This document shows positions 39,466 through 57,105 of a stretch of 64,000 nt of DNA, one piece after another; position 1 is the stretch's first letter, and every line of letters starts with the position of its first letter. The DNA lies in contig CAWIIQ010000001.1 of assembly GCA_963836185.1 (NCBI GenBank), forward strand, positions 1,049,424-1,113,423, given 5' to 3'. Position numbers and translations under genes: made by a program. The notes beneath the pieces were generated by a model that was not told the origin of the DNA, made no database searches, and saw nothing but the letters and a program-made list of their open reading frames with translations. The stretch comes from Candidatus Krumholzibacteriia bacterium. Its GTDB lineage: Bacteria; Krumholzibacteriota; Krumholzibacteriia; Krumholzibacteriales; Krumholzibacteriaceae.

Positions 39466-41734
39466 ATGTCTTCGGCTCGTCTCGAACCACGGATTTCCAA
39501 CAACGCTCTCAGAGTGCTCGAGAGAAGGTATCTGCGCAAGGACGTTAACGGAAATCTGACAGAGACGCCGGAAGAACTCTTCCAGCGGGTCGCGGCGAAT
39601 ATCGCCTCGGCCGAGAGGCGTTACGGTGACAACAAGAACCGCCTGGGCTGGGAAGATACGTTCTATAACATGATGGCCACCCTCGATTTTCTGCCCAATT
39701 CGCCGACCCTGATGAACGCCGGCGCCGAGCTCCAGCAGCTCTCCGCCTGCTTCGTCCTTCCGATCGAGGACTCGATGGAGAGCATCTTCGAGACGATCAA
39801 GAACACGGCGCTGATCCACAAGAGCGGAGGAGGCACGGGATTCTCCTTCTCGCGCATCCGCCCGAGGAACGACCGGGTCAAGACGACCAAGGGCATCTCG
39901 AGCGGGCCGATCTCGTTCATGACGGTCTTCGACGCCGCCACCGAAACGGTAAAGCAGGGCGGCACGCGCAGGGGCGCCAACATGGCGATCCTTCGCGTCG
40001 ACCATCCCGACATCCTCGATTTCATCACGGCGAAGAAGGACAACAGAAAACTCAACAACTTCAACATCTCGGTCGCCATCACCGAGGAATTCATGGAGGC
40101 GGTCAAGGCTGACCGCGACTATGAGCTGATCAATCCGCACGGCGGCGATGTCGTCGACAAGATATCAGCGAAGAAGGTCTACCAGATGATCGTCGAGCTC
40201 GCGTGGAAGAACGGCGAGCCGGGGATCGTTTTCATAGACAGGCTCAACGAGGATAATCCGACGCCCAACGCGGGGATGATAGAGAGCACGAATCCCTGCG
40301 GGGAGCAGCCGCTTCTTCCATACGAGTCGTGCAATCTCGGTTCGATAAACCTGTCGCACATGGTCACGGAAGACGGGCGACAAGTCGAAGATCGATTTCA
40401 ACAAGCTCGGCGAGACGGTGCGCAGGGCGACGCGGTTTCTCGACAACGTGATCGACGTGAACCGCTACCCGCTCAGCCAGATCAAGGATCAGACACTTGC
40501 CAACCGCAAGATCGGCCTCGGCGTCATGGGATTCGCCGACGCTCTCGTCAGGATGGAGATCCCCTACGACTCGGAGGAGGCCCTCGAGGTCGCCGAAGAG
40601 ATCATGGGATTCATCCAGCGCGAGTCGACCGCGACGAGCCTGGAGCTGGCCGAAGAAAGGGGAGCCTTCCCCAACTTCAAGGGCAGCAGGTTCGATACTG
40701 AGGATGCGCCGAAGCGCCGCAACGCGACGACGACGACGATCGCTCCGACCGGCACGCTGAGCATCATCGCCGGGTGCTCGAGCGGTGTCGAGCCTCTCTT
40801 CGCTGTAGCCTTCATCAGGCATGTCATGGACAACGATGAGCTCGTCGAGGTAAACCCGGTCTTCGAGGAGATCGCCCGCCGCGAGGGATTCTTCAGCGAA
40901 GAGCTGATGAAGAAGATCGCCGAGGAGGGGACCGTTCAGGGGATAGAGGAGATACCCGAGCATTGGCGGCGTATCTTCGTTACCGCGCATGATATCACGC
41001 CCGAGTGGCACATCCGGATCCAGGCAGCCTTCCAGAAATACACCGATAATGCCGTATCCAAGACGGTGAACTTTCCGAAGTCCGCCACTAAGGAAGACGT
41101 CGAATCAGTGTACATCAAGGCGTACGAGATGGGCTGCAAGGGCGTGACAATATACCGTGACGGAAGCCGTCAGGAGCAGGTCCTCAACATAGGCTCTGTC
41201 AACCGCGAGACCGAAGACGGCGAACTCGAGCTGGGCGATGATCTGGGCGGACTGCTCAAGCCGAGGCCGCGTCCCGAGGTGACGACCGGCAAGACCCACA
41301 AGATGACGACGGGCTGCGGAAACCTCTACGTGACGATCAACGAGGACGAGCACGGCCCGTTCGAGGTCTTCACGCAGATGGGCAAGGCGGGCGGATGCTC
41401 CGCCTCGCAGTCGGAGGCGATCAGCCGGCTGATATCTCTTTCGCTGCGCGCCGGAATCGATCCGAAGCAGATCGTCAAGCAGCTCCGCGGGATCAGGTGC
41501 CCCAACCCGGGATGGGAGAAGGGCGGCATGATCCTCTCGTGCAGCGACGCGATCGCCAGGGCGATCGAGCGGTACTTCCTCGAGGAGAAGACCCCGGTCG
41601 GCCACAAGGTCACCAAGATGTCGGCGGGATACCTCGACAAGGTCGCCGGCTTCTGCCCCGACTGCGGCGGCGTGATGGAGCACGAGGGAGGCTGCGCGGT
41701 CTGCCGCGAATGCGGCTTCTCCAAGTGCGGCTAA
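39466..41734 (+). CDS. nrdJ: class II (adenosylcobalamin-dependent) ribonucleoside-diphosphate reductase; apparent single-base frameshift near 40375
   Basis: N-terminal ATP-cone-less RNR core with [10 protein letters not shown] active-site Cys and C-terminal Cys pairs. Table ORFs 39466 and 40418 rejoin if one G is removed from gacgggcgac. Confidence 0.8.
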
Positions 41735-42355: not shown

Positions 42356-43366
42356 ATGCTCCGGTTGCCATGGGTGGGGAAAGGAAGTGACGACGTGGGC
42401 AATCTAAGGGAAGCTATGCGCCGGGAGCTGCGGCTCCGCAACTACAGTCCGGGCACGATCAGGACATATCTTCAGCACATGACAGAATTCACCAGGCACT
42501 TCGGCCGAAGTCCGTCCGAACTCGGCAGGGAAGAGATAAACTCCTACCTGCTCCACATGACGGAAGTAAGAAAGGTCTCCGCCACATACAGGGACCAGGC
42601 CATAAGCGCGCTGAAATTCTTCTACGGAAGGGTGCTGAAGAAACAGCTCATCATCGAAGAACTCCCACGTCCGAAGAAAGAATTCAAACTGCCGTCAGTG
42701 CTGAGCACAAAAGAAGTAGCTCGGCTCTTCCAGGCAGTCAGAAACCGGAAGCATCTCACCATCCTGATGCTCCTCTATTCCGGTGGTATGAGAGTAAGCG
42801 AAGTAGTCAGGCTCAAACCTGAGGACATCGATCCAGAAAGACACCTTATCAGGGTGCGAGGGGGAAAGGGACGGAAGGACAGGTACACAGTCCTCTCGGA
42901 TACGGCTCTCGATGTCCTCCGTGATTATTACCTGTCATGGAAGCCGGAATATTTTCTTTTTGAGGGAAACAGGAAAGGTTCTCATCTGTCGACAAGATCG
43001 GTCCAGAACGTCGTTTCAGCGGCCAGAAAGCGTGCCGGGCTGAAGAAGAAGTTCAGCACCCATGTTCTCAGGCACAGCTTCGCGACGCACCTCCTTGAAA
43101 GCGGCACCGATTTAAGGTATATTCAAGAACTACTGGGGCACAAAAGTGCCAGGACGACACAGATCTACACACATGTAACACGGAGGGATATCGCACGGAT
43201 CGTTAGCCCGCTGGACAGGATGATGGAGGGGGAAGCAGCGGCGACAGGACCGATCGGAACATCCGAACGGAAGAAATCTCCCACCCACCCCACCCATTTT
43301 ACTGAACGTCCTCGTCGCAAACGAACCAAAAACCGTCAAAACAACGAACCGGACACACACAAATAA
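42356..43366 (+). CDS. integron-type (IntI-related) tyrosine recombinase, co-oriented with the cassette array
   Basis: N-terminal SAM-like domain very similar in pattern to IntI (YSPGTIRTY..., ALKFFYG). Catalytic R...HxxR...Y present (VLRHSFATHLL, IYTHV). C-terminal SPLD. The IntI-specific insertion appears absent by eye. Identification rests mainly on the attC array starting about 460 bp downstream. Confidence 0.7.
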   Translation: MLRLPWVGKGSDDVGNLREAMRRELRLRNYSPGTIRTYLQHMTEFTRHFGRSPSELGREEINSYLLHMTEVRKVSATYRDQAISALKFFYGRVLKKQLIIEELPRPKKEFKLPSVLSTKEVARLFQAVRNRKHLTILMLLYSGGMRVSEVVRLKPEDIDPERHLIRVRGGKGRKDRYTVLSDTALDVLRDYYLSWKPEYFLFEGNRKGSHLSTRSVQNVVSAARKRAGLKKKFSTHVLRHSFATHLLESGTDLRYIQELLGHKSARTTQIYTHVTRRDIARIVSPLDRMMEGEAAATGPIGTSERKKSPTHPTHFTERPRRKRTKNRQNNEPDTHK

Positions 43367-43393
43367 ACTGTTATATGATAGCCGAGAGAGGCT

Positions 43394-43807
43394 ATGAGAA
43401 AGAAATACCGTAAACTTTTCACGATACTATTAGTATCAGCGTTATTGGCTTCTTGTGAAGCCAACGATATTGGAAAGTGCACACATATCCCTGTCGAAGG
43501 AGTCGCAACAATTGTCACAGTCTGAAGAGCGTTCTGAATACCAGGATTGTGGTATGGGGGTTTTATTATACATCGACCTGGCTCCCGATTGTCCAATTTA
43601 CGCTGAAAGATTTCAATACAAAATACTCGACTTCTGACTTTGTACCCCAAAAGATGGGTCGAAGCCGTTGGCTTGATAGAAGGATCTCAGCATAGGTGTA
43701 TTTACTTTGCTAAGGGTGGTCCTTGTCCTAACTATATCGTTTGGGAAGATATAGACGTACAAAGCATTGAAGATTCATGTACTGTGTGGGCTGCGGAATC
43801 ACCATGA
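43394..43807 (+). pseudogene. first cassette gene: lipoprotein of the 'DSCxVWE' family, carrying two compensating frameshifts
   Basis: ATG 43394 after gagagagg. MRKKYRKLFTILLVSALLASCEANDIGKCTHIPVEGVATIVTV (frame 2), then ...IDLAPDCPIYAERFQYKIL (frame 0, ORF 43455), then ...YPKRWVEAVGLIEGSQHRC...IEDSCTVWAAESP* (frame 2). This is collinear with the paralogs at 55813..56269 and 59517..59939. Confidence 0.5.
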
Positions 43808-43831
43808 TTGGGTTATGGGAGCTCGGCCATC

Positions 43832-43972
43832 ATATAACAGCAGTGTTCGCGGCTGCAGGCCTTCGGCCTTTCGCTCAGATGGCCTTTGTCACGGCGGCCG
43901 CAGGGCGACTGCCGCGCCAACCGGGCCTGGCGGCCCGGACGGCCACCTCGCGAACACGACCAATGTTATGTG
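43832..43972 (+). repeat. attC site 1 (type A, ~141 bp)
   Basis: catATAACAGcagtgttcgcgg...ctcgcgaacacgaccaatGTTATGt. Inverted cores with extrahelical bases. Confidence 0.8.
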
Positions 43973-43997
43973 ACATGACATTGAGATAGGAGGGGTA

Positions 43998-44593
43998 ATG
44001 AAAAGGCTATCTGCGGTCATATTCTTACTATTGCTGATGACGTCCGCTAGCGTACTTGCTGACTCGGTACAATTTACCATACGAGTTCATCGAGACGTTG
44101 AGGATATCTCTGCGCTAGAGGTGAAAACCTTTGAGATCATTTCGGGGGGACTATTCCCAGAAACTGAACTAGAAACAGAGATGAAGGAGAAGATTCGAGC
44201 ACGGATCGAGTCTACTGGATTAGTCTATGATCCTTCAAAGAAGGACCTCTTTGTTGGTGTTATCTTTGTTGGCTTCTCCGAGCATGGGAACAAGCTACCT
44301 GGATTGGAAGATTGGCCAAGTCAAACCCATGGATCTGTTGATTCAGCTTATGCGCTTCTAACTGCAGAATCTGAGAATACAGAAGGGCAAGGTGCATGGA
44401 GGTCCATCCAAATCCACATTCTTGCACCACCTATCAGGAAGTTCCGGTTCGGATCTGGACGGGCTCGGTTACATACGATGGATTAGAGACCGATACTGAT
44501 AAACTGGCAAATGTGATGTTGGAACAATTACTTCTTGAATATCCCGTGCCATCTGGAAAGCCAGAGTTGCGAGAAGTGATATTAAGTGAATAG
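43998..44593 (+). CDS. cassette 1: secreted hypothetical protein, frameshifted (ORFs 43998..44486 and 44396..44593)
   Basis: Signal peptide MKRLSAVIFLLLLMTSASVLA. Two overlapping frames both look protein-like. Confidence 0.4.
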
Positions 44594-44610
44594 TGGAGGG
44601 GTGTCACGTC

Positions 44611-44752
44611 ACATAACAGAGTGTTCGCGGCTGCAGGCCTTCGGCCTTTCGCATAGATGGCCTTTGTCACGGCGGCCGCAGAAGCGCCCGCCGCGCCAAC
44701 CGGGCCTGAGGGCCCGGACGGCCACCTCGCGAACACGACCAATGTTATTCGC
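44611..44752 (+). repeat. attC site 2 (type A)
   Basis: Near-identical to site 1. Ends GTTATTC. Confidence 0.8.
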
Positions 44753-44777
44753 CACCTAACCTTGCAAAGGAGATAAT

Positions 44778-44945
44778 GTGGATGTATTGAAAATGTTGCT
44801 TCCTTTCGGGATTGCCTTTTTAGTGTTCTTAGCTATAAGGGAAGTAATGTGCTGGTACTTCAGAATTAACAATATGCTCAATATGCTCAATAGTATTGAT
44901 ACCAGTTTAAAAAGAATGTCGGGAAGGACAGACAGTTCTTCTTAA
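44778..44945 (+). CDS. cassette 2: small (55 aa) hydrophobic protein
   Basis: Not in table (<60 aa). VDVLKMLLPFGIAFLVFLAIREVMCWYFRINNMLNMLNSIDTSLKRMSGRTDSSS. GTG or internal ATG start. Confidence 0.3.
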   Translation: MDVLKMLLPFGIAFLVFLAIREVMCWYFRINNMLNMLNSIDTSLKRMSGRTDSSS

Positions 44946-44976
44946 GACAATACAATTGATTTTACGGTTAGGCGGC

Positions 44977-45117
44977 GTATAACAGTGTGTTCGCGGCTGC
45001 AGGCCTTCGGCCTTTCGCTAAGATGGCCTTTGTCACGGCGGCCGCTAGAGCGCCCGCCGCGCCAACCGGGCCTGGCGGCCCGGACGGCCACCTCGCGAAC
45101 ACGACCAATGTTATCTG
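44977..45117 (+). repeat. attC site 3 (type A)
   Basis: gtATAACAGtgtgttcgcgg ... caatGTTATCt. Confidence 0.8.
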
Positions 45118-45194
45118 AAACCACACCTTATCGTGGTATAATTCAGCGTTGCGTGGATTCTGGCCACAAGACACTGTGCCCCAAGGATGATGAG

Positions 45195-47132
45195 ATGAAG
45201 AGCAAGAACCTCACAAGAGTACTGATCGCCTGCCTATTTATCATGATCTCTAACGAAATATCTGCTCAATGGTATGACTTGGGGAATCCTGTGTTCATTG
45301 ACCCGGGGATGTTTCAGGACACACACATTTCTTACGATGGCAATGGAGGCCTGTTCTTTACGTGGTGCGATTGGAGAAACGGGGGAGCCCCTTATCAGGC
45401 GGATGTCTATGCACAATATGTGAATGCTGACGGAATAGCACAATTCGGACTGTCGGGGATGCCAATCGATACGATCAGCGGCAATCAGTACAAGGCTAAT
45501 GTTTCATATGTGGGAGGGGATTGCGCGGTGATTGTATGGTCGGACCTGATGGATGGATATAAATTGCGAGCTCAGCGCATTAATTCCGAAGGAATGGTAT
45601 TCTGGGGAGACAGAGGTGTGGATGTATCAGAACAGTCAGGAATGGGAGAAGTCGCATCAGTGATTCCAGATATTAATGGAGGAGCCATAATATCCTGGAG
45701 AAATTTTTATGTTTGGATTCAACGGCTGGATTCACTGGGCAATCGGATGTGGGGGGAGGACGGAATAAGAATTAACAATATTGGGGACACTGTTGGCAGT
45801 GCTCCTGCAATTGTGAGTGATGGGGCGGGAGGCGCAATAATCGTATGGTCAGACTATCGCTCTGGGAGCATGACGCATGACATATATGCTCAACGTGTTA
45901 ACTCAAACGGGGATGAGTTATGGACAGACGGGGGATTGCCGATTAACAACAATGAAGGAGCTCAAACTCAACCCTCAATAGTGTTTGACGGAAATAACTC
46001 CTTTATCAGTTGGTTTAACAATACATGGGACATCGGTGTTCAGAAAATAGATCACGATGGTAATCTCTTATGGAATGTTAATGGAGTATATATTAGTCCA
46101 ATAGAGCCCAGACCTAAGTATCGAGCCATGGCTGCCGATAATCATGGAGGTGTGATTGCCGCTTGGGAAGATTTTAGGAATACGAGTTCAACTGAATCTG
46201 ATATTTACGCTCAGCGGATTCGCTCAGATGGGGAGATTGCATGGGATATAGATGGTATTGCGATTTACATTGGTGGAGGGGATCATCAACAGCCAGCAAT
46301 TTCTACCACATCATCAGGCGATGCTATCATTGTTTGGACTAATTATTATGGAATTTACGCACAACGAGTGGATACCAGCGGAGCAATATATTGGCCAGAA
46401 TACGGTGAAAACATTTCAAGAGGGCCAGGGTGCCAACACTGGCCACTTATCCAGAACATCGATGACAAAGAATTATTCGTTGTGTGGAATAAGAATGAGA
46501 ATGATGCATGTTATGGAAACGACGATTTATATGTTCAAAAGATTGATCTTGAAGGACACATTGTAGGCACATTTCTAGATCAGGCCGAATGGTATTGTGT
46601 CTCTGATGAAATATGTTTGAAATGGTCGATTGTCTTATCCGCAAATAATCTTGAATTCATTATACTGCGCACATTAAGCGGAGAGCATAAGTACAGAGAA
46701 GTTGGCCGGATTATTGGATTCGAACGTCAATCCGAATTTTGCTATATTGATAGCACATGTAAACTTGGGGAAAAGTACATATATCGTGTTATCGCTTCCA
46801 TGGAAGATGATGAGATGTTGCTTTTTGAAACTACAACAATCCTGATGCCAAATCTAAAGTATGTTCTTCATCAGAATTATCCGAATCCGTTCAATCCAAT
46901 AACCAAAATCTCATACAGTCTGCCAAAACAGTGCATCGTCAGCTTAAAGATATACGATATTATGGGAAAAGAGATTGTATGCCTTGTTAACAATCAATTG
47001 CAGCAAGGTGAACAGGTAATACATTGGGATGGTAAAAACCACTTCGGAGATCTTGTTTCTTCCGGAACATATTTTTGCAAGCTTTTTGCTGGAAAACAGA
47101 CAAAAGTAATTAAATTGATATGTCTGAGATGA
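45195..47132 (+). CDS. cassette 3: secreted repeat (beta-propeller-like) protein with T9SS C-terminal sorting domain
   Basis: Signal peptide MKSKNLTRVLIACLFIMISNEISAQ. About 8 repeats of ...GGAIIxWxD...IYAQRxNxxG.... C-terminal QNYPNPFNPITKISYSLP...IHWDGKNHFGDLVSSGTYFCKL = T9SS CTD. The table ORF start at 44985 lies inside attC 3 and is rejected. Confidence 0.7.
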   Translation: MKSKNLTRVLIACLFIMISNEISAQWYDLGNPVFIDPGMFQDTHISYDGNGGLFFTWCDWRNGGAPYQADVYAQYVNADGIAQFGLSGMPIDTISGNQYKANVSYVGGDCAVIVWSDLMDGYKLRAQRINSEGMVFWGDRGVDVSEQSGMGEVASVIPDINGGAIISWRNFYVWIQRLDSLGNRMWGEDGIRINNIGDTVGSAPAIVSDGAGGAIIVWSDYRSGSMTHDIYAQRVNSNGDELWTDGGLPINNNEGAQTQPSIVFDGNNSFISWFNNTWDIGVQKIDHDGNLLWNVNGVYISPIEPRPKYRAMAADNHGGVIAAWEDFRNTSSTESDIYAQRIRSDGEIAWDIDGIAIYIGGGDHQQPAISTTSSGDAIIVWTNYYGIYAQRVDTSGAIYWPEYGENISRGPGCQHWPLIQNIDDKELFVVWNKNENDACYGNDDLYVQKIDLEGHIVGTFLDQAEWYCVSDEICLKWSIVLSANNLEFIILRTLSGEHKYREVGRIIGFERQSEFCYIDSTCKLGEKYIYRVIASMEDDEMLLFETTTILMPNLKYVLHQNYPNPFNPITKISYSLPKQCIVSLKIYDIMGKEIVCLVNNQLQQGEQVIHWDGKNHFGDLVSSGTYFCKLFAGKQTKVIKLICLR

Positions 47133-47179
47133 TTATATACTCAATTTGAGCACTATACTTATAAGTCAGGTGTGGCTTC

Positions 47180-47321
47180 AGATAACAGAGTGTTCGCGGC
47201 TACAGGCCTTCGGCCCTTCGCTCAGATGGCCTTTGTCACGGCGGCCGCTAGAGCGCCCGCCGCGCCAACCGGGCCTGGCGGCCCGGACGGCCACCTCGCG
47301 AACACGACCAATGTTATCCGA
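47180..47321 (+). repeat. attC site 4 (type A)
   Basis: gATAACAGagtgttcgcgg ... caatGTTATCCg. Confidence 0.8.
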
Positions 47322-47539
47322 CATCTTATTGAAGCTTAAAGAGGTGAAATTGCTATGAAAATGATGAAGCCAATTGTTGTTCTGATAGTACTGATACTCC
47401 TGTTCTCGGTCGCAAAGTATGTCAGAGTTCAAGCATTTCATATTAGAAAGTGAGAGCAAGGTTGAGCTTCCTAATTATTTTTATGATGACCTAGAGCCAT
47501 ACGTTACAACAATAGATCGCCAGCATTCTGACAAAGAGG

Positions 47540-47986
47540 ATGATTCGCCTTGCTGAATCTGTTTATCCACCAAGAAGGAAGATGCTTGAGAAGCATCCAG
47601 GTTTGCCAGAAGAAATGGTAGCAGATTCACTGTGGGTGGCTGAAGAGCACGGCGATTTAAAAATACCCTACACACTAACTGCGAGTGCAGTTCGGTACTA
47701 TATTGATCTGATGAAGAGGTACGAAAAGAAGGACGAAACGCTCGATAGTATCCCGAAAAATGCAAAGTTAACATATAAAGCAGACATGCACGGTCCATCA
47801 ACTTTCATTATTAATGGTGAATTGTATGAAAATGTTAAGGTTGTAACCCTTGAGTTAAGCTGGTCCACCTATACTAATGCTTTGAATGCTGGAGGATTCA
47901 GTATTGTCAAGTTTGTGATTTTCGACAGGGAGAAGAATATTCTGGGTGTGTTTGGGGATGGATTCCCTGGAGAATGGGCGTCATGA
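47540..47986 (+). CDS. cassette 4: hypothetical protein (148 aa)
   Basis: Table ORF. No recognised domain. A 32-aa hydrophobic mini-ORF (47355..47453) precedes it. Confidence 0.45.
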   Translation: MIRLAESVYPPRRKMLEKHPGLPEEMVADSLWVAEEHGDLKIPYTLTASAVRYYIDLMKRYEKKDETLDSIPKNAKLTYKADMHGPSTFIINGELYENVKVVTLELSWSTYTNALNAGGFSIVKFVIFDREKNILGVFGDGFPGEWAS

Positions 47987-48014
47987 ACATTGGGAATATC
48001 CAATAGAAGACGTC

Positions 48015-48155
48015 GGATAACAGAGTGTTCGCGGCTGCAGGCCTTCGGCCTTCGCTCAGATGGCCTTTGTCACGGCGGCCGCTGGAGCGCCCGCCGCGCC
48101 AACCGGGCCTGGCGGCCCGGACGGCCACCTCGCGAACACGACCAATGTTATTCGC
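48015..48155 (+). repeat. attC site 5 (type A)
   Basis: ggATAACAGagtgttcgcgg ... caatGTTATTCg. Confidence 0.8.
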
Positions 48156-48559
48156 CATGTGGCAGATGAATAAATTTAACTTCGATTTCTTCTTATTTTT
48201 TAGGACTCTTCTTTCCCCGCAGTACAGCCCCATCCAGCCTCAGGGTGACTTCCGGAGTCTCTAAAGCCTGATCGATCCAGTACCTCATATTTTCTCCGAT
48301 GTTAAGGCCTAGACTCGTGCCGTAACGGGCCTGAGGGTGGCTTGCGGCTGAGACTGAGATCCTCGATCCTGAGGTTTTAAGGGGCCGAGATTGGTAGGGG
48401 AGAGCTCGTAAGGAACTTGCTTTCAACGATCGGGGCAATTCAGCGTACGACTTCGGGTCGCGCTGTCGCATCTTTATCAGCCAAGGGTTGGCTGAAAGAC
48501 TATTGAACCGGAGAGATTAAAGGATTAGATTTATAGGTGAGGGGTGATCTAGTATGAAT
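48156..48559 (+). other. cassette 5: ORF-less conserved element, copy 1 (candidate structured RNA / mobile 5' leader)
   Basis: About 404 bp between attC 5 and attC 6. Shares long conserved blocks with 51800..52215. Ends in SD-like aggtgagggg + ATG reading into attC 6. Confidence 0.5.
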
Positions 48560-48675
48560 TCCACACGGCGTATAACAGAGGTGTTCGCGGCTGCGCATGT
48601 CACCCGGCCTGCAGAGCACGCCGGGCGCCAATGCTTCGCGTACACCGCCTGCGGCGGCGTCGCGAACACTCACAA
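48560..48675 (+). repeat. attC site 6 (type B variant, ~116 bp)
   Basis: Same R''/L'' (tATAACAGaggtgttcgcgg) and L'/R' (cgcgaacactcacaatGTTATAC) but a different central region. Confidence 0.75.
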
Positions 48676-48740
48676 TGTTATACGATAAATGCCCTTATTC
48701 CTTTGACATATTCAATTCTACATAGATAGAATCTCCATAC

Positions 48741-51639
48741 ATGTTAGGGGAAACAATCTCACATTATGAAATTCTCGAGAAGCTCGGCGAGGGCGGGATG
48801 GGCGTAGTCTACCGCGCCCGTGACACGAAGCTCGACCGCGAGGTGGCTATCAAGCTCCTGCCCCCGCACCTGAGCTCCGATCCCGAGGCGGTAAAGAGGT
48901 TCGTCCATGAGGCGAAGACCGCCTCGGCCCTGAACCACTCCGCTATAGGCGTCATCCACGAGATAGACGAGACGGATGACGGCCAGACGTTCATCGCAAT
49001 GGCCCTCTACGAGGGGGGACTCTCAGGGAGAAGCATCGACAGCGGCAGCATGACATCTAGGCGAAGCAGTAACCATAGCCTCCCAGATAGCCTCGGGTCT
49101 CGACCAGGGCCCACGAGAAGGGGATAGTCCACAGGGACATCAAGCCGCAGAACATACTTCTGACCAGAGACGGCGAGGCGAAGATAATCGACTTCGGCCT
49201 AGCGAAGCTCGCCGGAAGGACGAAGCTGACGAGGGACGGGAGTACGCTCGGCACTGCCGCCTACATGTCCCCCGAGCAGGCGAGGGGAGAAGAGGTCGAT
49301 CACCGTTCGGACATCTTCTCTCTCGGGACGATCCTGTACGAGATGCTCGCCGGTGAGCCACCATTCAAGGGGGAGCACGAGGCGGCGTTGCTCTACGGGA
49401 TAGTGCACGAGGAGCATGAAGAGATATCGGAGAAGTGCGGGGGCATAGCACCGGAATTGTGCAATGTGGTCGGAAAGACGCTGAAGAAGGAAAAGGAAGC
49501 AAGGTATCAGAACGCGGCGGACCTGAAAGCTGAATTGAAGAGGTCGAGCACCGGCAGTGTCGATGAGGGCGGACCGAGGGATACGAAGGACGCTGGAAGA
49601 GGTAAAGGGTTCTGGATAGGCATTGCGGCGGTCACCGTGACACTCACAACTGCCGTACTTCTCGTAATGACCGGACGTGAGCCGGCGCCGCTTACCGCTT
49701 CGGAGATGACTCTCGCTGTGGTTGATTTTAATGACCTAGCAACAGAACCGGATCCTATAAAATCCAAGACGATTACAGAGCTGCTAAATACCTCCCTGGG
49801 AGATTTCTGTCCGATACGCGTTCAGAGCCCGGAACGAGTAAGGGAATGTCGAAGACAGCTTTTCGGTTCAACTGAAGCGCAGATAGAGGAAGGGCAGGAA
49901 CTGGAGATCGCGCGCAGGAGCGAAGCGACCTATTTGCTTACTGGCAGCATCAGTGTCGTTGGCAACGACGGTTTTATCTCTTGGAGGCTCATAGATGTAC
50001 TAAGTGGGACTATCATCAAGGCCGGAACAGTCGAACCAGGTGAGATGATGGCAGTAGTTGATAAGATCGTGGAGGTCGTATTGCCGGAGATCGCAGAAGC
50101 TTCGGGAGTTGAGCAGACTGCAGAGCAGGTTTCCGTGGCACAATCTCGACATCTTCACAGCAGGCGTTTGAGCATTACGTTAGGGGTAAGATAAATCATG
50201 ACAGCGATCGTCCAGTCGAAGCACTCGATGAATACACGAAAGCTGTCGGATTAGATTCCAGTTTTGCTCTTGCCTGGTTTGCTATGTCTAGACTCTACTA
50301 TGGTGCCATGATGATTAGGTATGATCCGGCACTTTATAATAAATACAATGAGCTTGCCTTAAGGTATGAATCCAGGATGGGCACCAAGGAGAGGATGCAG
50401 CTTCGTGCTATTAATCTTGGAGGAGTCAAAACGATAGAAAAACTCAAGGAAATCCTCGAGCTCTGGCCTGATGACCGCGAGACGCTGCAGATGCTCGTCC
50501 TCAGAACCCACTATAATTGGATGCAAAAAGAATGTATCGAGTACTCTCGAATCGGATTGACGCTATACCCGGAAGACCAGGTTTTCGGAGGAAGTATCTA
50601 TATCACATCTCTTAATAATTTGGGTCTAAGCCAAGAAGCGATGAAGGCGTCCAGAGAATTTATCAGAAAATATCCTGACGATTCGGCAGCTTGGCGTTCT
50701 CTTGCCGAGACATTTGTGGTCATGGGGCAACCGGACAGTGCCGAGGCGATCTGCAGAATAATTTTGGAGAAATATCCTGAAGGCAGCCAGAATGCAGAGG
50801 CAAGGCGGATGATAGCACGATGTGCATATCTTGCAGGCGATCTAGATGAATCGATTTCAAGGTATGATAGATTATTGTCAGACGCGAACCTGGATGAATC
50901 TACTCGTCAGGAGATTCTTTCTAACTATACTCACATTATAGATCTTACTTATGTATATCGAGAAGCTGGCCGCTACTACGACGCCTTGCGGACCTTGAAT
51001 GAGGCAAGACCGTACTTCGGCAACCGACCTGATCGCTGGGAATTACAAATGGGCTATCTGCTAGTAGATATTGGCAGGAACAAGAATGCGTTGAAACTCG
51101 CTGAAGAGATGCTTGCATCAGATAATATGCCAATGCAGAGGTATGCCAGACGATTCATGGGCAAGGCGCAAGTTAATAATGGTGATATCCAAGGTGCTCA
51201 GGAAACTGTATCGATACTGGATGGACTTGGCATAGTCAGGGGACCTATCTACAAGTACCATTCATTTTTCACTCAGGCATATATTGCATTGGCAAGGAAT
51301 GATGCTTCAGTGTCTCTAAAGCATCTTGATGATGCGGCCCAGATAGTGGGCTTCTCATACTGCATGTTCGGAATCGAGCTGAAGACATTGCAGGCGGAGG
51401 CGAACAGACTGGCAGGGGACCTGGAGGCGGCAGCCTCGATCCATGAAGAACTGCTGAGGATTCATGGCGGACATGCATTGTCACACTTCGAACTCGGTAA
51501 ACTGTATGAGGCAATGAGAAGAACGGACGAGGCAAAACTGCACTATAATAGATTCCTAGAGATGTGGAATAACGCTGATGATGGATTACCTCAACCTGCA
51601 CTCGCGAGGGAGAGACTGACAGCGCTTAAAGGTGTTTAA
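48741..51639 (+). pseudogene. cassette 6: degraded Ser/Thr protein kinase fused to a TPR domain (at least 3 frameshifts between 49010 and 49140)
   Basis: Kinase subdomains [27 protein letters not shown] and SPEQ are present but spread over three frames. The C-terminal TPR region (50284..51639) is intact in one frame and contiguous with the kinase region in sequence. Confidence 0.55.
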
Positions 51640-51658
51640 ATAGAGCAGGGCTTTCATC

Positions 51659-51799
51659 GCATAACAGTGTGTTCGCGGCTACAGGCCTTCGGCCCTTCGC
51701 TCAGATGGCCTTTGTCACGGCAGCCGCAGGGCGACTGCCGCGCCAACCGGGCCTTGAGGCCCGGACGGCCACCTCGCGAACACGACCAATGTTATCCGC
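51659..51799 (+). repeat. attC site 7 (type A)
   Basis: cATAACAGtgtgttcgcgg ... caatGTTATCCg. Confidence 0.8.
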
Positions 51800-52215
51800 T
51801 ATGTGGCAGCTGATTGAATTTATCTTCGATCTTTTCTTTTTATTGGGACCCTTCTTCCCGCCCATCCCAACCATTACCAGCCGGAGGTCGACTTCCGAGA
51901 GTCTCTAGAGCTAGTTCTGCAAGGTGACGAGTCCAACCCCTGTAAGAATAATGCCTCTATAGATGATCCGGCCTGAGGGTGGCTTGCGAGGCGCGACTGA
52001 GATCCTCGGGTCAAGAGGCTTTAAGGGCCGAAATAGGGGTAGGGGAGCGATCGTCAGGGACTTGCTATCATCGGTCTGAGGCAGGTTCATCTCTCGACTT
52101 CGGGAGGCGCAGTCGCAGTTCTATCAACGGGTCAACGCCGAAAGACTATTGAAAGTTCGAGATTAACGGTATAGATTTAGAGGTGAGGGGTGCCTATATA
52201 TGAATTCCACACAGC
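51800..52215 (+). other. cassette 7: ORF-less conserved element, copy 2
   Basis: Collinear with 48156..48559 (blocks ...atgtggcag..ttcgat..ttctt..., ggcctgagggtggcttgcg, gactgagatcctcg, cgacttcggg, aaagactattgaa, gagattaa.gg.atagattta.aggtgaggggtg...atgaattccacac). No conserved ORF on either strand. Confidence 0.5.
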
Positions 52216-52346
52216 GGATAACAGCAGTGTTCGCGGCTACGGGCCTTGAGGCCCTCGCTCAGATGGCCTTTACCGGCCTTTGGCGCGCCGGCCAACCGGG
52301 CCTGAGGCCCGACGACCAACTCGTTAACATGACCACTGTTATGGAG
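52216..52346 (+). repeat. attC site 8 (degenerate type A)
   Basis: ggATAACAGcagtgttcgcgg ... ctcgttaacatgaccactGTTATGG. L' arm mutated. ATG of the next gene lies inside R'. Confidence 0.65.
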
Positions 52347-52868
52347 GGACGTTTTAGAAAATGTAACATACGAATCATTCTGGTTGTTCTCGTCTTAACT
52401 TCAGCTCTTATATCCTGTGGAGAGGATAGCTGTGAGTGCCCTACACCTAATCCTATTGAATACACCAGCGTTGTGTTCTACTACAAAGATCATCCATATT
52501 GCTATTCAAGTACTGCTGGATTAGAGGTAGAGCTTTATGTCGGTGATGAACTCATAGGGTATTGGCATTATGGCTCTAATCCAGCAGATCCAAATCTAGA
52601 TTATCCTAATTCGCAACCTTTTCCGGTTGAGCTCGGAAGTGCCTTGAACCTTGAATTCAGGTATTGGGATAAATCAGGTCATGAGATGAGAGACACAGCA
52701 AATCTCATCATGGATGATGAAGATTGCACTTACGTCAGTTTCTTTGCCGACATAGAAAATCCCTGCCTGGGTGCTGAGTTATGTGATAGTTGTATTGTTT
52801 TTGAGATCGATGAAAACATGAAGTGTGAGGGTGCTGATTCAATCTATGTCGCTGTAGTGACTAATTGA
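52341..52868 (+). CDS. cassette 8: Cys-rich lipoprotein
   Basis: MEGRFRKCNIRIILVVLVLTSALISCGEDSCEC.... The ORF is also open upstream through attC 8 to the ATG at 52200 of the conserved element. Confidence 0.55.
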   Translation: MEGRFRKCNIRIILVVLVLTSALISCGEDSCECPTPNPIEYTSVVFYYKDHPYCYSSTAGLEVELYVGDELIGYWHYGSNPADPNLDYPNSQPFPVELGSALNLEFRYWDKSGHEMRDTANLIMDDEDCTYVSFFADIENPCLGAELCDSCIVFEIDENMKCEGADSIYVAVVTN

Positions 52869-52881
52869 TGGAGACAGCGGC

Positions 52882-53024
52882 ATATAACAGTGTGTTCGCG
52901 GCTACGGGCCTTGCGGCCCTTCGCTCAGATGGCCTTTGTCACGGCGGCCGCAGAAGCGCCCGCCGCGCCAACCGGGCCTGGCGGCCCGGACGGCCACCTC
53001 GCGAACACGACCAATGTTATCCGC
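52882..53024 (+). repeat. attC site 9 (type A)
   Basis: catATAACAGtgtgttcgcgg ... caatGTTATCCg. Confidence 0.8.
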
Positions 53025-53038
53025 AAGCGTATTATGAT

Positions 53039-53434
53039 ATGAACAAGTTCCCAGCAATATTTTTTTTGTCACTCCTTCTGGCTTCCTGCCGAGATCCTTT
53101 CGCGCATGAATGGGAAAACTTATATCAGCTCAGCGCAGATCAGATTATTCTACCCGATACTGCTCAAATATTTCAACCGATGCAGGTCAAAGTGCAGGTT
53201 ACTTTAGATACATCTAATCATAATTACAAAGACCAATATATCGAAACAACACCAGATGGCTATCTGATAGTGCTGATTGGTGTAATAGAAGATACGAGAT
53301 TTCCAGATAATGACCCGGATCCCAGAACAGAATGGCATTCTTTTAACCTTATCCCATTTAAGAAAGGAGAAGTAATCATTGAGGGGAAACGAGTCAATTC
53401 AGAGAATCTTATTGATTCAGTGTATGTTCAGTAG
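53039..53434 (+). CDS. cassette 9: lipoprotein, 'EWHxF' family member 1
   Basis: MNKFPAIFFLSLLLASCRDP... contains ...PDT...TEWHSFNLIP.... Paralogous to 54398..54760 and 54947..55336. Confidence 0.6.
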   Translation: MNKFPAIFFLSLLLASCRDPFAHEWENLYQLSADQIILPDTAQIFQPMQVKVQVTLDTSNHNYKDQYIETTPDGYLIVLIGVIEDTRFPDNDPDPRTEWHSFNLIPFKKGEVIIEGKRVNSENLIDSVYVQ

Positions 53435-53447
53435 TGGGCACGCCTGC

Positions 53448-53589
53448 GCATAACAGAGTGTTCGCGGCTACGGCCTTCGGCCTTTCGCTCAGATGGCCTT
53501 TGTCACGGCGGCCGCTGGAGCGCCCGCCGCGCCAACCGGACTTGGCGGCCCCGGACGGCCACCTCGAAAACACGACCAACGTTATACGA
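53448..53589 (+). repeat. attC site 10 (type A)
   Basis: gcATAACAGagtgttcgcgg ... ctcgaaaacacgaccaacGTTATAC. Confidence 0.8.
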
Positions 53590-53646
53590 AAGGCCGGGAA
53601 GCGATAAAAAAGAACCTTGACAGATATGCATATATGATGCATACTG

Positions 53647-54207
53647 ATGCATATGAGAACTACACTGAATATTGACGATGATCTGATTCGCAAGGCAGCG
53701 AAGATGACAGGGATCAGCGAGAAGACTTCCCTGGTACGCCTCGGGCTTGAAGCATTGATCGCTCTTGAGAGCGCGAGAAGGCTAGCAGCTCTTGGCGGCA
53801 CAGAGAAAGATCTTGGCCCTGATTCCTCGCAAACGAACGAGTTCGTGAGTATGATCCTGGCTGATACATCTGTATGGATCGATCATCTTCGCAATGGAAA
53901 CAAGCGGATGGCTCTTTTTCTGAACGAAGGTGTCGTTTTGTGTCATCCTTTCATACTCGGGGAATTGGCCTGTGGGAACCTCAAAAACAGAGCTAAAATA
54001 CTCGATATGCTTGCTTCCCTTCCGACAATGCCAGTTGCAGAGCACAGTGAAGTGCTTGATTTCATTTCCCGATACAAATTCCAAGGGAAGGGTATAGGGT
54101 GGATCGATGCCCATCTGTTGGCATCAACATTTCTGGCGAAAAGCCGAATCTGGACTCTCGACAAATCTTTACTAAAGATAGCAAAAGACCTGAAGGTCTC
54201 AATATAG
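53647..54207 (+). CDS. cassette 10: VapB-like antitoxin + PIN-domain VapC toxin in a single open frame
   Basis: N-terminal MRTTLNIDDDLIRKAAKMTGISEKTSLVRLGLEALIA (VapB/DUF2191-like). C-terminal MILADTSVWIDHL...GELACGN...IDAHLLA (PIN acidic residues). No stop between the two parts. Confidence 0.7.
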   Translation: MHMRTTLNIDDDLIRKAAKMTGISEKTSLVRLGLEALIALESARRLAALGGTEKDLGPDSSQTNEFVSMILADTSVWIDHLRNGNKRMALFLNEGVVLCHPFILGELACGNLKNRAKILDMLASLPTMPVAEHSEVLDFISRYKFQGKGIGWIDAHLLASTFLAKSRIWTLDKSLLKIAKDLKVSI

Positions 54208-54239
54208 GGCAATCAAAAGGTTTAGTAGCCGGCCACTTC

Positions 54240-54382
54240 GTATAACAGAGTGTTCGCGGCTGCGGGCCTTGCGGCCCTTCGCTCAGATGGCCTTTGTCAC
54301 GGCGGCCGCAGGAGCACCCGCCGCGCCAACCGGGCCTGGCGGCCCGGACGGCCACCTCGCGAACACGACCAATGTTATCCGA
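54240..54382 (+). repeat. attC site 11 (type A)
   Basis: gtATAACAGagtgttcgcgg ... caatGTTATCCg. Confidence 0.8.
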
Positions 54383-54397
54383 AAGCGCGGGATATGT

Positions 54398-54760
54398 ATG
54401 AATAAAAAAATCGCATTATCGATCCCATTACTTCTTGTAGTTGCATGTAATCTATTCAAGCCACCTGAAAAGATACAAACATGGGCTGATGTCGAACAGA
54501 TTGTTGTTCCTGATACTGTTGACTATTTCGAAGCTTTCGAGATCAGCGCTGAAATTTCAATGGACCATACATGTAAGTATGTAGGTCCTGTGCTGGAAGA
54601 AACTTCTGAGGGCTGCTCCATTACCATTATCGTTGAATCTGTGGAAGTGAGCTTTCATGAAAAGGATATTTCTGAGTGGCATACCTTTACTCTGAGACCT
54701 CTCGAATTGGGATCTTACATCATCAGGGTGAAAAGTAAGAATGTGGAAGATTCTTGTTGA
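54398..54760 (+). CDS. cassette 11: lipoprotein, 'EWHxF' family member 2
   Basis: MNKKIALSIPLLLVVACNLF... contains ...PDT...SEWHTFTLRP.... Confidence 0.6.
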   Translation: MNKKIALSIPLLLVVACNLFKPPEKIQTWADVEQIVVPDTVDYFEAFEISAEISMDHTCKYVGPVLEETSEGCSITIIVESVEVSFHEKDISEWHTFTLRPLELGSYIIRVKSKNVEDSC

Positions 54761-54789
54761 TTCAACTTACGTTCGTTAGATGCGCCATC

Positions 54790-54932
54790 GGATAACAGTG
54801 TGTTCGCGGCTACAGGCCTTGCGGCCTTTCGCTCAGATGGCCTTTGTCACGGCGGCCGCAGGAGCGCCCGCCGCGCCAACCGGGCCTGGGGGCCCGGACG
54901 GCCACCTCGCGAACACGACCAATGTTATGCGA
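54790..54932 (+). repeat. attC site 12 (type A)
   Basis: ggATAACAGtgtgttcgcgg ... caatGTTATGCg. Confidence 0.8.
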
Positions 54933-54946
54933 AGGCGAGGGGAACA

Positions 54947-55336
54947 ATGAAATTAGCGGTTGGAATAATTGCAATTATCGTTATTTGCTCTTCCTGCGAA
55001 GATCCACCAGTAAAAGTATGTGACCGACCAGTAATGTTGGAAGTAGAACAGTTGATGGCTCCGGATTCTTGCAGGTTAGGTGAGCAGGCACAATTACAAG
55101 TCGAAGTAATTCTTAACGGTTCAAGTTATAGTTATTTCGGCCCCGACATTAACGACACAGATTCGGGTTGTAGAATAAGGATTATGGGAGAAAAAGATGA
55201 ATGTGCACTTAACACTCCTTGCATTTGCTACGAGTGGCATTCGTTTGTTATTTCCCCCTCACAAACGGGAATATACATAATAGAGATAATTAATTCTCAA
55301 GCTGATGATTTAGCGGATACAATAACAGTGTATTAG
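54947..55336 (+). CDS. cassette 12: lipoprotein, 'EWHxF' family member 3
   Basis: MKLAVGIIAIIVICSSCEDP... contains ...YEWHSFVISP.... Confidence 0.6.
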   Translation: MKLAVGIIAIIVICSSCEDPPVKVCDRPVMLEVEQLMAPDSCRLGEQAQLQVEVILNGSSYSYFGPDINDTDSGCRIRIMGEKDECALNTPCICYEWHSFVISPSQTGIYIIEIINSQADDLADTITVY

Positions 55337-55346
55337 CTGTGCCATC

Positions 55347-55486
55347 GGATAACAGAGTGTTCGCGGCTGCAGGCCTTCGGCCTTTCGCTCAGATGGCCTT
55401 TGTCACGACAGCCGCAGGGCGACTGCCGCGCTAACCGGGCCTGGCGGCCCGGACGGCCACCTCGCGAACACGACCAATGTTATGTG
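55347..55486 (+). repeat. attC site 13 (type A)
   Basis: ggATAACAGagtgttcgcgg ... caatGTTATGTg. Confidence 0.8.
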
Positions 55487-55512
55487 CAATGCTGTGCATT
55501 AATTTAAAGGGG

Positions 55513-55677
55513 ATGAAGTTGAAGAAACTATCTCTGATCATCGGAATTCTCGCATTAGCCGTTGCAATAATCATCTTCATATATGCTTCTGGTGCTAGGC
55601 GAATTTATAGCGGCCTCTTATTTATATTGATAGCTATCATCCAATTCACTTTTGCTCTTCGAAAAGGTGATAAATGA
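55513..55677 (+). CDS. cassette 13: small two-TM membrane protein (54 aa)
   Basis: MKLKKLSLIIGILALAVAIIIFIYASGARRIYSGLLFILIAIIQFTFALRKGDK. Confidence 0.4.
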   Translation: MKLKKLSLIIGILALAVAIIIFIYASGARRIYSGLLFILIAIIQFTFALRKGDK

Positions 55678-55693
55678 TCAATAAGGGCACTGC

Positions 55694-55768
55694 ACATAAC
55701 AGAGTGTTCGCGGCTGCGGGCCTTGCGGCCCGGACGGCCATCTCGCGAACACGACCAACGTTATGCGA
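55694..55768 (+). repeat. attC site 14 (short variant, ~75 bp, central region deleted)
   Basis: acATAACAGagtgttcgcggctgcgggccttgcggcccggacggccatctcgcgaacacgaccaacGTTATGC. Confidence 0.7.
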
Positions 55769-55812
55769 AAAGCCGCAGACGTTAAAACCTACCCCTGGGA
55801 GGAGATGATGTG

Positions 55813-56269
55813 ATGTTGAAATCAGGAATGTTCATCATTGCCGCTGTTTTTTTTATTCTCGCTCCTTATTTCTTGTGAGGATGAAGAAGGCATCATTTGT
55901 GGGGGAGAGTGCCTTTATCATGAGATACCAGGCACAGCATCTATTATTTCTGTTACTGATATTGATGGATCTACCTATTGTGGAGATCCTGTCGAGGTGA
56001 TTTACAACTTTACTCCAGATGATCCAAGCGATATTGATCCAGACTATTTGACGATTTGGCCACTCGATAATATTTACTACAAGATAGGTCAAAACAATCC
56101 GCCACGAAGATGGGTTGAAACGCATGGACTTCTGGCAGGAACAGACCATCCATGTACAAGATTTAGGATTTACAAGGGATCTTGTGTGCCTGTTGGATAC
56201 AATTTTGATGGCATAGATGATTACAGTGTCTCTGATTCATGTGATGTATGGGAGCAAGAGATACCATAA
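55813..56269 (+). CDS. cassette 14: lipoprotein of the 'DSCxVWE' family; frameshift in a T8 homopolymer at ~55848
   Basis: ATG 55813 gives MLKSGMFIIAAVFF. After removing one T of the T8 run this continues ...LFSLLISCEDEEG... (lipobox). C-terminus ...DSCDVWEQEIP. Confidence 0.5.
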
Positions 56270-56293
56270 GTAAACTTGATTACTGCGACCACC

Positions 56294-56426
56294 GCATAAC
56301 AGAGGCATTTGCGTACTCGCCTGGCTTCGCCAGAACTAGGCTGTCACGGCCGTTGCAATTTGAGTGCATGATGATAGATAAATAGGGGATTGCGGCTGCG
56401 CCGCGAATGCTCACAATGTTATACGG
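56294..56426 (+). repeat. attC site 15 (type B-like variant, diverged arms)
   Basis: gcATAACAGaggcatttgcg ... cgcgaatgctcacaatGTTATAC. Shares the ...ctcacaatgttatac end with site 6. Confidence 0.65.
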
Positions 56427-56452
56427 CATGCAGTTCATGGCAGGGGAATAAA

Positions 56453-56995
56453 TTGATCCATATAGTATTTGATCTCGAAGCTACCTGCTGGGAACAGGGC
56501 ACAACGCCGAGTCGAATGGAAATTATTGAAATTGGGGCCACAAGGCTGCACCCTGATACATACGAAATCGATAGTGTGTTCTCTACCTTTGTGCGACCTG
56601 TCGAGGAACCTGAGCTAAGCGACTTCTGCAAGAACCTAACATCCATCCAACAAACTGACGTCGATCTTGCGCCTGTTTTTCCCGAGGCGATGGATATGTT
56701 CTTTGCCTGGATTGATGCTAGTGAAGTTACCTTTTATTCCTGGGGCTACTATGATATCAAGCAGATCCGAATGGATTACCAGCGTCATGGAAATTCTGAG
56801 CCGGCGGCATTCAGTAGCCACGTTAATTTGAAGAAGCTATTTTCTGAGATCTATGGCAGGAAGCCTTGTGGAATGCGGAAGGCTCTAAATATACTTGGGT
56901 TGGGGCATGAAGGGACGCATCATAGGGGTGTGGATGATGCAAAGAACATTTCCAGGATCGCTAAAGTAATTCTTCCGGAATATTATGGCTCCTGA
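56453..56995 (+). CDS. cassette 15: DEDDh-type 3'-5' exonuclease (DnaQ-like/ERI-1-KapD-like)
   Basis: Exo I IHIVFDLEAT, Exo II ...FYSWGYYD, Exo III HHRGVDDAKNISRI (H-x4-D). TTG 56453 is the likely start. The longer table ORF starts inside attC 15. Confidence 0.7.
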   Translation: MIHIVFDLEATCWEQGTTPSRMEIIEIGATRLHPDTYEIDSVFSTFVRPVEEPELSDFCKNLTSIQQTDVDLAPVFPEAMDMFFAWIDASEVTFYSWGYYDIKQIRMDYQRHGNSEPAAFSSHVNLKKLFSEIYGRKPCGMRKALNILGLGHEGTHHRGVDDAKNISRIAKVILPEYYGS

Positions 56996-57042
56996 AGACC
57001 TGAGTATTGGGGAACTGGACTTTGAATAGGTGGCTGCACGCC

Positions 57043-57105
57043 GGATAACAGTGTGTTCGCGGCTGCAGGCTCAGGCGGCCACCTCGCGAGCATAAGCAAT
57101 TGAAG
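57043..57105 (+). repeat. attC site 16 (truncated, R' core mutated): array terminus
   Basis: cggATAACAGtgtgttcgcggctgcaggc|tcaggcggccacctcgcgagcataagcaattg. Central part missing. GTTAT replaced. Confidence 0.6.

Follow-up and report, generated by a model that had tools for sequence, protein, structure and literature searches.

A stretch of 64,000 nucleotides (nt) from Candidatus Krumholzibacteriia bacterium (GenBank assembly GCA_963836185.1, contig CAWIIQ010000001.1, positions 1,049,424 to 1,113,423 of the forward strand; hereafter 'the window') bears a gene for a tyrosine recombinase, a candidate attI site at the 3′-end of this gene and, downstream, an array of cassettes in which open reading frames (ORFs) on the + strand are each followed by an attC site (Table 1). 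The recombinase is IntI-like, but lacks the additional (I2) domain that defines integron integrases both in practice (IntegronFinder, profile TIGR02249) and mechanistically; the attC sites, in turn, lack extrahelical bases. In canonical sites these are single partnerless bases, two or three of them, on the R″-L″ arm (PMC2727003), and it is the I2 helix that docks them (PMC7790495). The element is best filed as integron-like yet without two defining features, the IntI additional domain and the attC extrahelical bases, the two absences being mutually consistent. Judging from its sequence, the locus is probably a working variant of a sedentary chromosomal integron, with the recombinase as its putative integrase. 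One reason for assigning it this role is position: the gene lies directly before the first cassette, and no second tyrosine recombinase ORF was detectable across the whole 64 kb of the window.

The recombinase ORF ends in a TAA stop codon at positions 43364–43366. Its product matched the Pfam families Phage_int_SAM_4 and Phage_integrase (PF00589, E = 4e-42), and contains R146, K171, H236, R239, H262 and Y271, a catalytic set found to be invariant in 32 relatives. A C-terminal SPLD motif, also present, was invariant in the same 32 proteins. With the catalytic residues and this motif kept among its relatives, the enzyme looks catalytically competent. Residues ∼290–336 form a low-complexity tail, and the DNA coding for it overlaps attI. 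Compared with profile models, the protein scored high enough for XerA (NF040815; 244.8 bits, 220 being required) and too low for integron integrases (TIGR02249, 230.9 with 265 required; PRK15417, 155.5 with 435 required). The match to TIGR02249 was split into two stretches, the first placing residues 20–190 on model positions 4–175.

A similar split was seen when the Protein Data Bank was searched with phmmer. The best sequence match was the Vibrio cholerae integron integrase VchIntIA (2a3v; 150 bits), followed by XerA (137 and 133 bits), and the alignment to 2a3v came in two pieces, residues 21–190 of the query matching IntI residues 9–179, and residues 208–289 matching 239–320; some 59 IntI residues (180–238) were thus passed over against 17 of the query. 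The distance between the GKGRKDR and HVLRH motifs was 59 residues, a spacing shared, with few exceptions (58–61), by those of the top 120 database homologues in which both motifs were found (∼70). The corresponding hairpin-to-HxLRH spacing was 60–66 residues in XerA, XerC and XerD, and 100 in IntI1 as well as in nine further IntI homologues that carry the insertion. In a MAFFT alignment, both parts of the IntI1 insertion, including THSTDPRSGV, were missing from the recombinase (34% identical to IntI1), as they are from XerD and XerA. The AlphaFold2 model (predicted local distance difference test score, pLDDT, of 80) contained no I2 helix at the corresponding position; only a short β-hairpin was seen at residues 196–212, between helices 182–195 and 213–227. 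The top structural match of the model was again 2a3v (Foldseek E = 7e-16), with XerA coming next. The recombinase is therefore short of ∼41 residues, comprising the I2 helix and the flanking hairpin extension, which make up the IntI-specific additional domain. An initial annotation of this DNA had suspected as much from the motif spacing and had proposed that alignments and profiles be consulted; all of these analyses bear the suspicion out. Its description of the N-terminal domain and SPLD tail as IntI-like also holds, the SAM-like N-terminal domain being shared with VchIntIA and IntI1 and SPLD being invariant in the family.

To place the protein among tyrosine recombinases, a neighbour-joining tree was built from 107 sequences (277 columns, 100 bootstraps); the method is a rough one. 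The sample included XerC and XerD of E. coli, two XerA proteins, IntI1, VchIntIA, 11 more IntIs with the insertion and ∼90 relatives without I2. Canonical IntIs were monophyletic in 100% of the bootstraps, and the query fell outside their clade. IntI and the I2-less family, the query included, grouped together apart from XerA with a bootstrap of 85% (XerA lay outside with values of 85–97%). Monophyly of the I2-less family was unsupported (14%), and the query belonged to a tight clade (98%), the named members of which come from metagenome-assembled genomes (MAGs) of Krumholzibacteria. On this rough tree, the recombinase appears to be a member of a sister group, or grade, of IntI, and to be neither a canonical IntI nor an ordinary XerC/D or XerA. 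The initial annotation had offered a choice between a divergent IntI lineage and a recruited XerD-like enzyme. The answer lies in between: the protein is not within the IntI clade, yet it stands with IntI apart from XerA and has the SPLD motif in common with IntI. A secondary loss of I2 within the IntI clade was also considered; such a recent loss is unsupported by the tree because the recombinase falls outside that clade. As to the direction of change, parsimony would favour a single gain of I2.

The sequence GTTATAT, which the initial annotation had singled out as a candidate attI core, does lie just past the recombinase gene, at positions 43370–43376, its G being the fourth nucleotide after the stop codon. 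Attention had been drawn to the 43367–43831 region as the place to search for attI-like direct repeats; these are found instead upstream of the core, within the 3′-end of the ORF, where AACGAACC occurs twice (43320–43327 and 43343–43350), followed by GACACACACAAATAAACT and then by the core GTTAT (43370–43374). At its R′ end, every attC shows this core as well. A 3′-end alignment was made for eight orthologous loci (the window plus L081, L082, L084, L090, L092, L094 and L095; loci other than the window are designated by L and a number); those of their recombinases for which a substantial match was obtained are 72–82% identical to that of the window. The sequence ...ACGAACCnGACACACACAAATAAACT-GTTAT was kept across the eight loci up to and including GTTAT, and the sequences beyond were unrelated; the mean pairwise identity fell from 76% over the left 30 nt to 36% over the right 30 nt. 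In some relatives, the left part of attI was wholly duplicated in tandem. Such a break in conservation is what would be expected if different first cassettes had been inserted at one fixed crossover point; as far as aligned sequences can tell, the GTTAT core that starts at position 43370 thus acts like an attI crossover. A similar core was found 3′ of the recombinase gene in L101 (...CAAATAAAGT-GTTAT), L106 (...CAATAAACT-GTTAT), L103, L105 and L108. The candidate attI sites of L103 (Nitrospiraceae, 10895–11015) and L105 (Methanophagales, 10865–11000) consist of two palindromic direct repeats, such as ATATCCGAAC...CGGATACA, followed by GTTAT, a layout unlike that of the window attI (ACGAACC/CACACA). 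A scan for sigma-70 promoters returned a few weak matches (43095–43123 within the gene, and 43350–43379 at attI), which are not evidence for a Pc promoter.

The array contains 15 attC-like sites plus a truncated one, between positions 43834 and 57100. All are on the + strand, and no attC copies were found on the – strand across the window; the recombinase gene is thus upstream of, and co-oriented with, the cassettes, as originally described. The G+C content of the array is 39–57%, compared to ∼58% in the flanking chromosome, and the cassettes contain a VapBC toxin-antitoxin and small ORFs without Pfam matches. Both the cassette content and the low G+C are typical of chromosomal integrons. The repeated sites are imperfect palindromes of 69–170 nt, with the order R″-L″...L′-R′ and an AAC...GTT core, that form hairpins. 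When the bottom strands of three window sites were folded, z-scores of –4.2 to –5.9 were obtained, while the degenerate site 15 scored ∼0. A scan of the window against Rfam at gathering thresholds returned no match.

Table 1. Coordinates, in the window, of the recombinase gene, the candidate attI site and the cassette array with its attC sites
Feature	Position	Strand	Evidence or remarks
Tyrosine recombinase, 336 amino acids, IntI-like, without additional (I2) domain	42356–43366	+	ORF, profile, PDB, alignment and structure-model evidence
Candidate attI	43320–43376	+	Direct repeats, core, conservation in 8 orthologous loci
Cassette array, ∼13.7 kb	43371–57100	+	+ strand ORFs, each followed by an attC
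attC 1	43834–43969	+	
attC 2	44613–44748	+	
attC 3	44979–45114	+	
attC 4	47182–47317	+	
attC 5	48017–48151	+	
attC 6	48572–48681	+	Variant interior; R and L boxes unchanged
attC 7	51661–51795	+	
attC 8	52218–52342	+	L′ arm diverged
attC 9	52884–53020	+	
attC 10	53450–53585	+	L′ arm diverged
attC 11	54242–54378	+	
attC 12	54792–54928	+	
attC 13	55349–55483	+	
attC 14	55696–55764	+	Minimal 69-nt form; R box, bulge and L box unchanged
attC 15	56296–56422	+	Other sequence family, L box GCATTTGC; 4/7 spacer geometry kept; weak hairpin overall
Terminal attC, truncated	57045–57100	+	R″ and L″ present, GTTAT absent; array end, katG next

An important feature of these sites is the shape that they are predicted to adopt. 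The attC sites were located by scanning for R-box/L-box offsets and walking along the stem, a procedure that replaced a first finder based on AAC...GTT plus fold energy, which had returned nine of 14 complete sites and was noisy in GC-rich loci. Bottom strands were folded with the AAC and GTT triplets forced to pair, and the predicted stem was followed 14 bp inward. Beside I2-less recombinases, 31 out of 33 attC sites had a net excess of at least three unpaired nucleotides on the R′-L′ arm (+3 or +4 in 29 cases); for the most part this excess was a 3–4-nt bulge, separated from the AAC/GTT triplet by one or two base pairs. None of these 31 sites had one-base bulges on the R″-L″ arm within the 14 bp. 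The controls were ten attC sites beside canonical IntIs (L071 and L080) and attC_aadA1 of a class 1 integron. These showed a near-symmetric central loop and two one-base bulges on the R″-L″ arm, at base pairs 6–8 and 11–13, the net excess being –1 or 0. The offset scan, which measures the distances in nucleotides from AAC to L″ and from L′ to GTT, gave values of 3/7, 4/7, 4/8, 1/5, 2/6, 2/5 and 5/8. The difference between the two offsets remained steady at 3–4 while the absolute spacers and the L-box sequences varied, and at least ten different L boxes paired at the kept offset. The central spacer of the attC sites beside I2-less enzymes is a one-sided 3–4-nt bulge or a 2 × 6 loop rather than a ∼5/6 bubble. 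The hairpins were strongly non-random (z-scores of –4.2 to –7.2), degenerate site 15 excepted. In these predicted folds, it is the structure of attC that is kept rather than its sequence. Protein type and attC architecture vary together, the absence of I2 pairing with the absence of extrahelical bases.

The order recombinase, attI, co-oriented array was also found in L082, L092, L095, L097, L101, L106 and L108, whose recombinases are 57–80% identical to that of the window. Among relatives 57–82% identical to the window recombinase, the genes were syntenic, a ribonucleotide reductase (RNR) and a flavin reductase preceding the recombinase and the array (L092–L097, L106 and L108). The attC family of the window occurs in L082, L084 and L092 as well; L095 bears decaying copies, in some of which the R″ box has decayed, and L097 (65% identity) contains a different attC family of ∼166 nt. 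In L101 (61% identity), which has another chromosomal context, the attC set is mixed and the cassettes are toxin-antitoxin and restriction-like. Downstream, co-oriented arrays were seen beside less similar recombinases too, in L103 (Nitrospiraceae, 54% identity), with attC sites of 67–68 nt, and in L041 (Gilvibacter, 42% identity). In L036 (positions 1–5960; MAG Firmicutes HGW-8, 43% identity) gene and array diverge, which is the classical arrangement; the attC sites are very long (270–380 nt) and show the 5/8 spacer asymmetry. The pairing of an I2-less recombinase with bulged attC sites therefore recurs in four phyla, in Krumholzibacteriota, Nitrospiraceae, Bacteroidota and Firmicutes loci. 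The contigs of many relatives end 0.1–1.5 kb from the 3′-end of the gene (L081, L083, L093, L094, L102, L105, L106, L107 and many of L001–L050). Such ends are what would be expected if repeats, either arrays or multicopy elements, break assemblies at these points, and arrays are thus probably under-observed.

Some of these loci showed other peculiarities. The homologues P0012, labelled 'Methanosarcinaceae archaeon' (76% identity, on a 2.2 kb contig), and P0040 (locus L106), labelled 'Patescibacteria group' (57%), look mis-binned; in the latter, RNR and flavin reductase genes are syntenic with the recombinase gene, as they are in Krumholzibacteria. Locus L107, labelled Dehalococcoidia, contains a V-type ATPase operon upstream. 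In L010 (2500–16400, chromosome of an Oceanirhabdus sp.), dense families of long repeats flank an I2-less relative (45%); they were not attC-like by the scans used.

These data suggest how the system could work. The recombinase would insert cassettes immediately past the 3′-end of its own gene, between the G and the TTAT of the attI core (43370), and would excise or reshuffle cassettes between attC sites, the latter being recognised as folded single strands. The folded bottom strand would present a 6-bp R box (ATAACA/TGTTAT) and an L box of variable sequence. Crossover would take place between the G and the TT of R′ and, as in classical integrons, cleavage would fall on the 5′ arm of the bottom-strand hairpin; R′ is favoured because of the side on which attI is conserved and because of the cassette boundaries, and the 5′ arm because of the polarity of tyrosine recombinases. 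The alternative that the + strand is the one recombined, its extra bases being located on the 3′ arm like those of canonical bottom strands, was rejected because attI conservation and the cassette boundaries place the crossover between G and TT of R′, on the 5′ side of the bottom-strand hairpin. The bulge would make the central region ∼6–8 nt long on the cleaved R′-L′ arm, which is a normal length between cleavage point and L box, and 2–4 nt long on the opposite arm. We propose that the asymmetry may stand in for the interaction between I2 and the extrahelical bases. It could tell the bottom from the top strand, marking the strand to be recombined, and might misplace the monomer bound to the L box so that a single strand exchange occurs, resolution being left to replication. 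Catalysis by the recombinase, recombination of single strands and the role of the bulge are all proposed here from sequences and predicted folds.

Several observations weigh against the locus being a working integron. Messier and Roy 2001, cited in both PMC4889954 and PMC9668308, found that IntI1 needs the additional domain for its activity. The geometry described for attC derives from predicted minimum-free-energy folds, and the tree from neighbour-joining of 277 columns. The conserved synteny with the RNR and flavin reductase genes would also fit a housekeeping gene. Among the matches listed, the distant family members (L001–L050, 35–51% identity) mostly had no array in the flanks available; since most of them are without a detectable array, the protein family is broader than integron function. 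In addition, the search for further recombinases covers the 64 kb window, the contig being 2.3 Mb long, and Cury et al. 2016 judged 50 recombinases found near attC sites without an intI_Cterm match not to be IntI, their cases being scattered and having fewer than three sites (PMC4889954).

The last two points would also be accounted for if the array were an integrase-less attC cluster (CALIN), or were acted on in trans by a canonical IntI whose gene lies elsewhere, with the neighbouring Xer-like enzyme unrelated to it and merely syntenic; so would the fact that this enzyme passes the XerA model and fails that of integron integrases. We nevertheless consider this explanation unlikely. The cases of Cury et al. 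had fewer than three attC sites each, versus at least 15 here (PMC4889954), and the attC sites of the window lack the extrahelical bases that a canonical IntI uses for strand choice. Further, a merely syntenic gene would not be expected to have the conservation break at GTTAT 3 nt past its stop codon in eight loci, nor to be paired with such sites across four phyla, where the architecture of attC follows the type of recombinase.

A second explanation, which we hold to be quite improbable, is that of a system of the Xer type in which one recombinase acts on duplex sites (similar to XerS/difSL); here the array would represent tandem integrations at a dif-like site, with two-strand exchange. In its favour are the absence of I2, the scoring of the recombinase family as XerA, and the fact that the target site adjoins the gene, as the difSL site adjoins xerS. 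Against it, the cumulative GC skew is monotonic across the 64 kb window, with no skew switch (terminus) at the locus, and no inverted-arm duplex core (dif-type site) was identified there. Since R″ and R′ are 60–160 bp apart in the duplex, no duplex core is formed at the 3′-ends of the cassettes. The sites are imperfect palindromes with strongly non-random hairpins and L boxes that are variable yet always paired, and the repeating unit, one promoterless ORF plus one site, has the format of a cassette. A third explanation, a fossil in which the integrase of a once-canonical integron lost I2 and is now inactive while the array decays, would fit the truncated terminal attC, the diverged L′ arms of attC 8 and 10, the decayed R″ boxes of L095 and the broken look of some cassette genes, but is the least credible given that the recombinase lies outside the canonical IntI clade, that the 59-residue spacing and catalytic residues are conserved across homologues, that the attC sites consistently follow an alternative plan and are not randomly decayed, and that first cassettes differ among close relatives.

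If the locus is indeed a working integron variant, a further-reaching reading can be advanced tentatively, in which it and similar loci would represent a living, pre-I2 stage of the integron, I2 and the extrahelical bases having arisen later, once, on the stem of the canonical IntIs. The joint claim that attC sites are recombined as folded single strands in an I2-less lineage that is sister to IntI, with strand choice provided by the bulge in the central spacer, is put forward with the same reserve. The acquisition of I2 has been regarded as the founding innovation of integrons, intermediates being lacking (Escudero et al. 2020, PMC7790495), and archaeal IntIs also carry the additional domain (Ghaly et al. 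2022, PMC9668308). Were the pre-I2 reading correct, these loci would supply the 'missing intermediates' of Escudero et al. 2020 (PMC7790495) and would overturn the view that I2 acquisition was what enabled single-strand recombination. If the pairing of I2-less recombinase and bulged attC sites itself holds up as a working integron, it would provide a second solution to structure-specific recombination of single strands, of interest for engineering, and the order of events in the origin of integrons would become directly testable with natural enzymes and natural 69-nt substrates. In that case such elements are presumably filed by standard pipelines as CALINs, which would mean that integron diversity is undercounted. 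No description of I2-less integrases heading arrays, or of attC sites with this geometry, was found in the literature covered; this coverage is incomplete, and an earlier description is possible.

The orientation of the gene is not the novel part, since integrases co-oriented with their cassettes are a known variant, in Treponema and others (PMC4889954, PMC9668308), and since canonical, insertion-bearing IntIs with arrays downstream on the same strand were found here in L071 (a MAG of Acidobacteriota) and L080 (a MAG of Eisenbacteria). The view in the initial annotation that same-strand arrangements are rare thus needs correcting; co-oriented intI genes seem to be common in environmental phyla. 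The 'inverted' integrons of Treponema and other Spirochaetota (PMC4889954, PMC9668308) resemble the window locus in having the integrase gene upstream on the cassette strand, attI just downstream of intI, and a long array of promoterless ORFs with near-identical, lineage-specific attC sites and toxin-antitoxin cassettes. Theirs, however, have the additional domain and extrahelical bases, while here both are absent and a 3–4-nt bulge is located on the other arm.

The enzyme resembles VchIntIA and IntI1 in its SAM-like N-terminal domain, its catalytic residues (RKHRHY) and the SPLD motif near its C-terminus, and differs from them in the ∼41 missing residues, in scores below the TIGR02249 and PRK15417 cutoffs, and in its position outside the canonical clade. 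Archaeal XerA (NF040815; PDB 4a8e and 5hxy) is similar to it in length and domain layout, and in having no insertion between the β-hairpin lysine and box II. In contrast, XerA lacks SPLD, falls outside the grouping of IntI with the I2-less family, and acts on duplex dif in chromosome resolution, whereas the window gene heads an attC array and is not located at a GC-skew switch. With respect to canonical attC sites (Bouvier 2009, PMC2727003), those of the window have the same inverted R″/L″...L′/R′ boxes, AAC...GTT core, variable terminal structure and L boxes of variable sequence with kept pairing, and the crossover would likewise fall between G and TT of R′. They differ in having no extrahelical bases on the R″-L″ arm and in a spacer of 2–4 versus 6–8 nt instead of a ∼5/6 bubble (PMC2727003).

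Some additional observations were made on the surroundings of the recombinase gene and on the cassettes. Upstream, the gene for a class II RNR (39466–41734, + strand) is split into two overlapping ORFs, 39466–40701 and 40418–41734, which correspond to residues 1–313 and 318–756 of the intact, 755-residue orthologue of L095; the frameshift, near 40404–40420, may reflect a pseudogene or an assembly indel. Within the array, a large cassette of ∼3 kb (48682–51660) contains a protein-kinase domain split over two ORFs (48741–49127 and 49265–50194), perhaps by a frameshift, and a tetratricopeptide repeat (TPR) protein (50284–51639). The cassette ORF at 53647–54207 (+ strand) joins a VapB antitoxin domain (residues 3–44) and a PIN toxin domain (residues 70–180) in one frame, and could be either a fused toxin-antitoxin or two genes joined by an indel. 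A cassette encoding an RNase_T-family exonuclease was present both in the window (56390–56995) and in the L097 array (11981–12895), the locus with the other attC family. Directly after the truncated attC lies a gene for a KatG-like catalase-peroxidase (57232–59436). From 59 to 64 kb, where attC sites were not found, the low G+C content (46–48%) persists.

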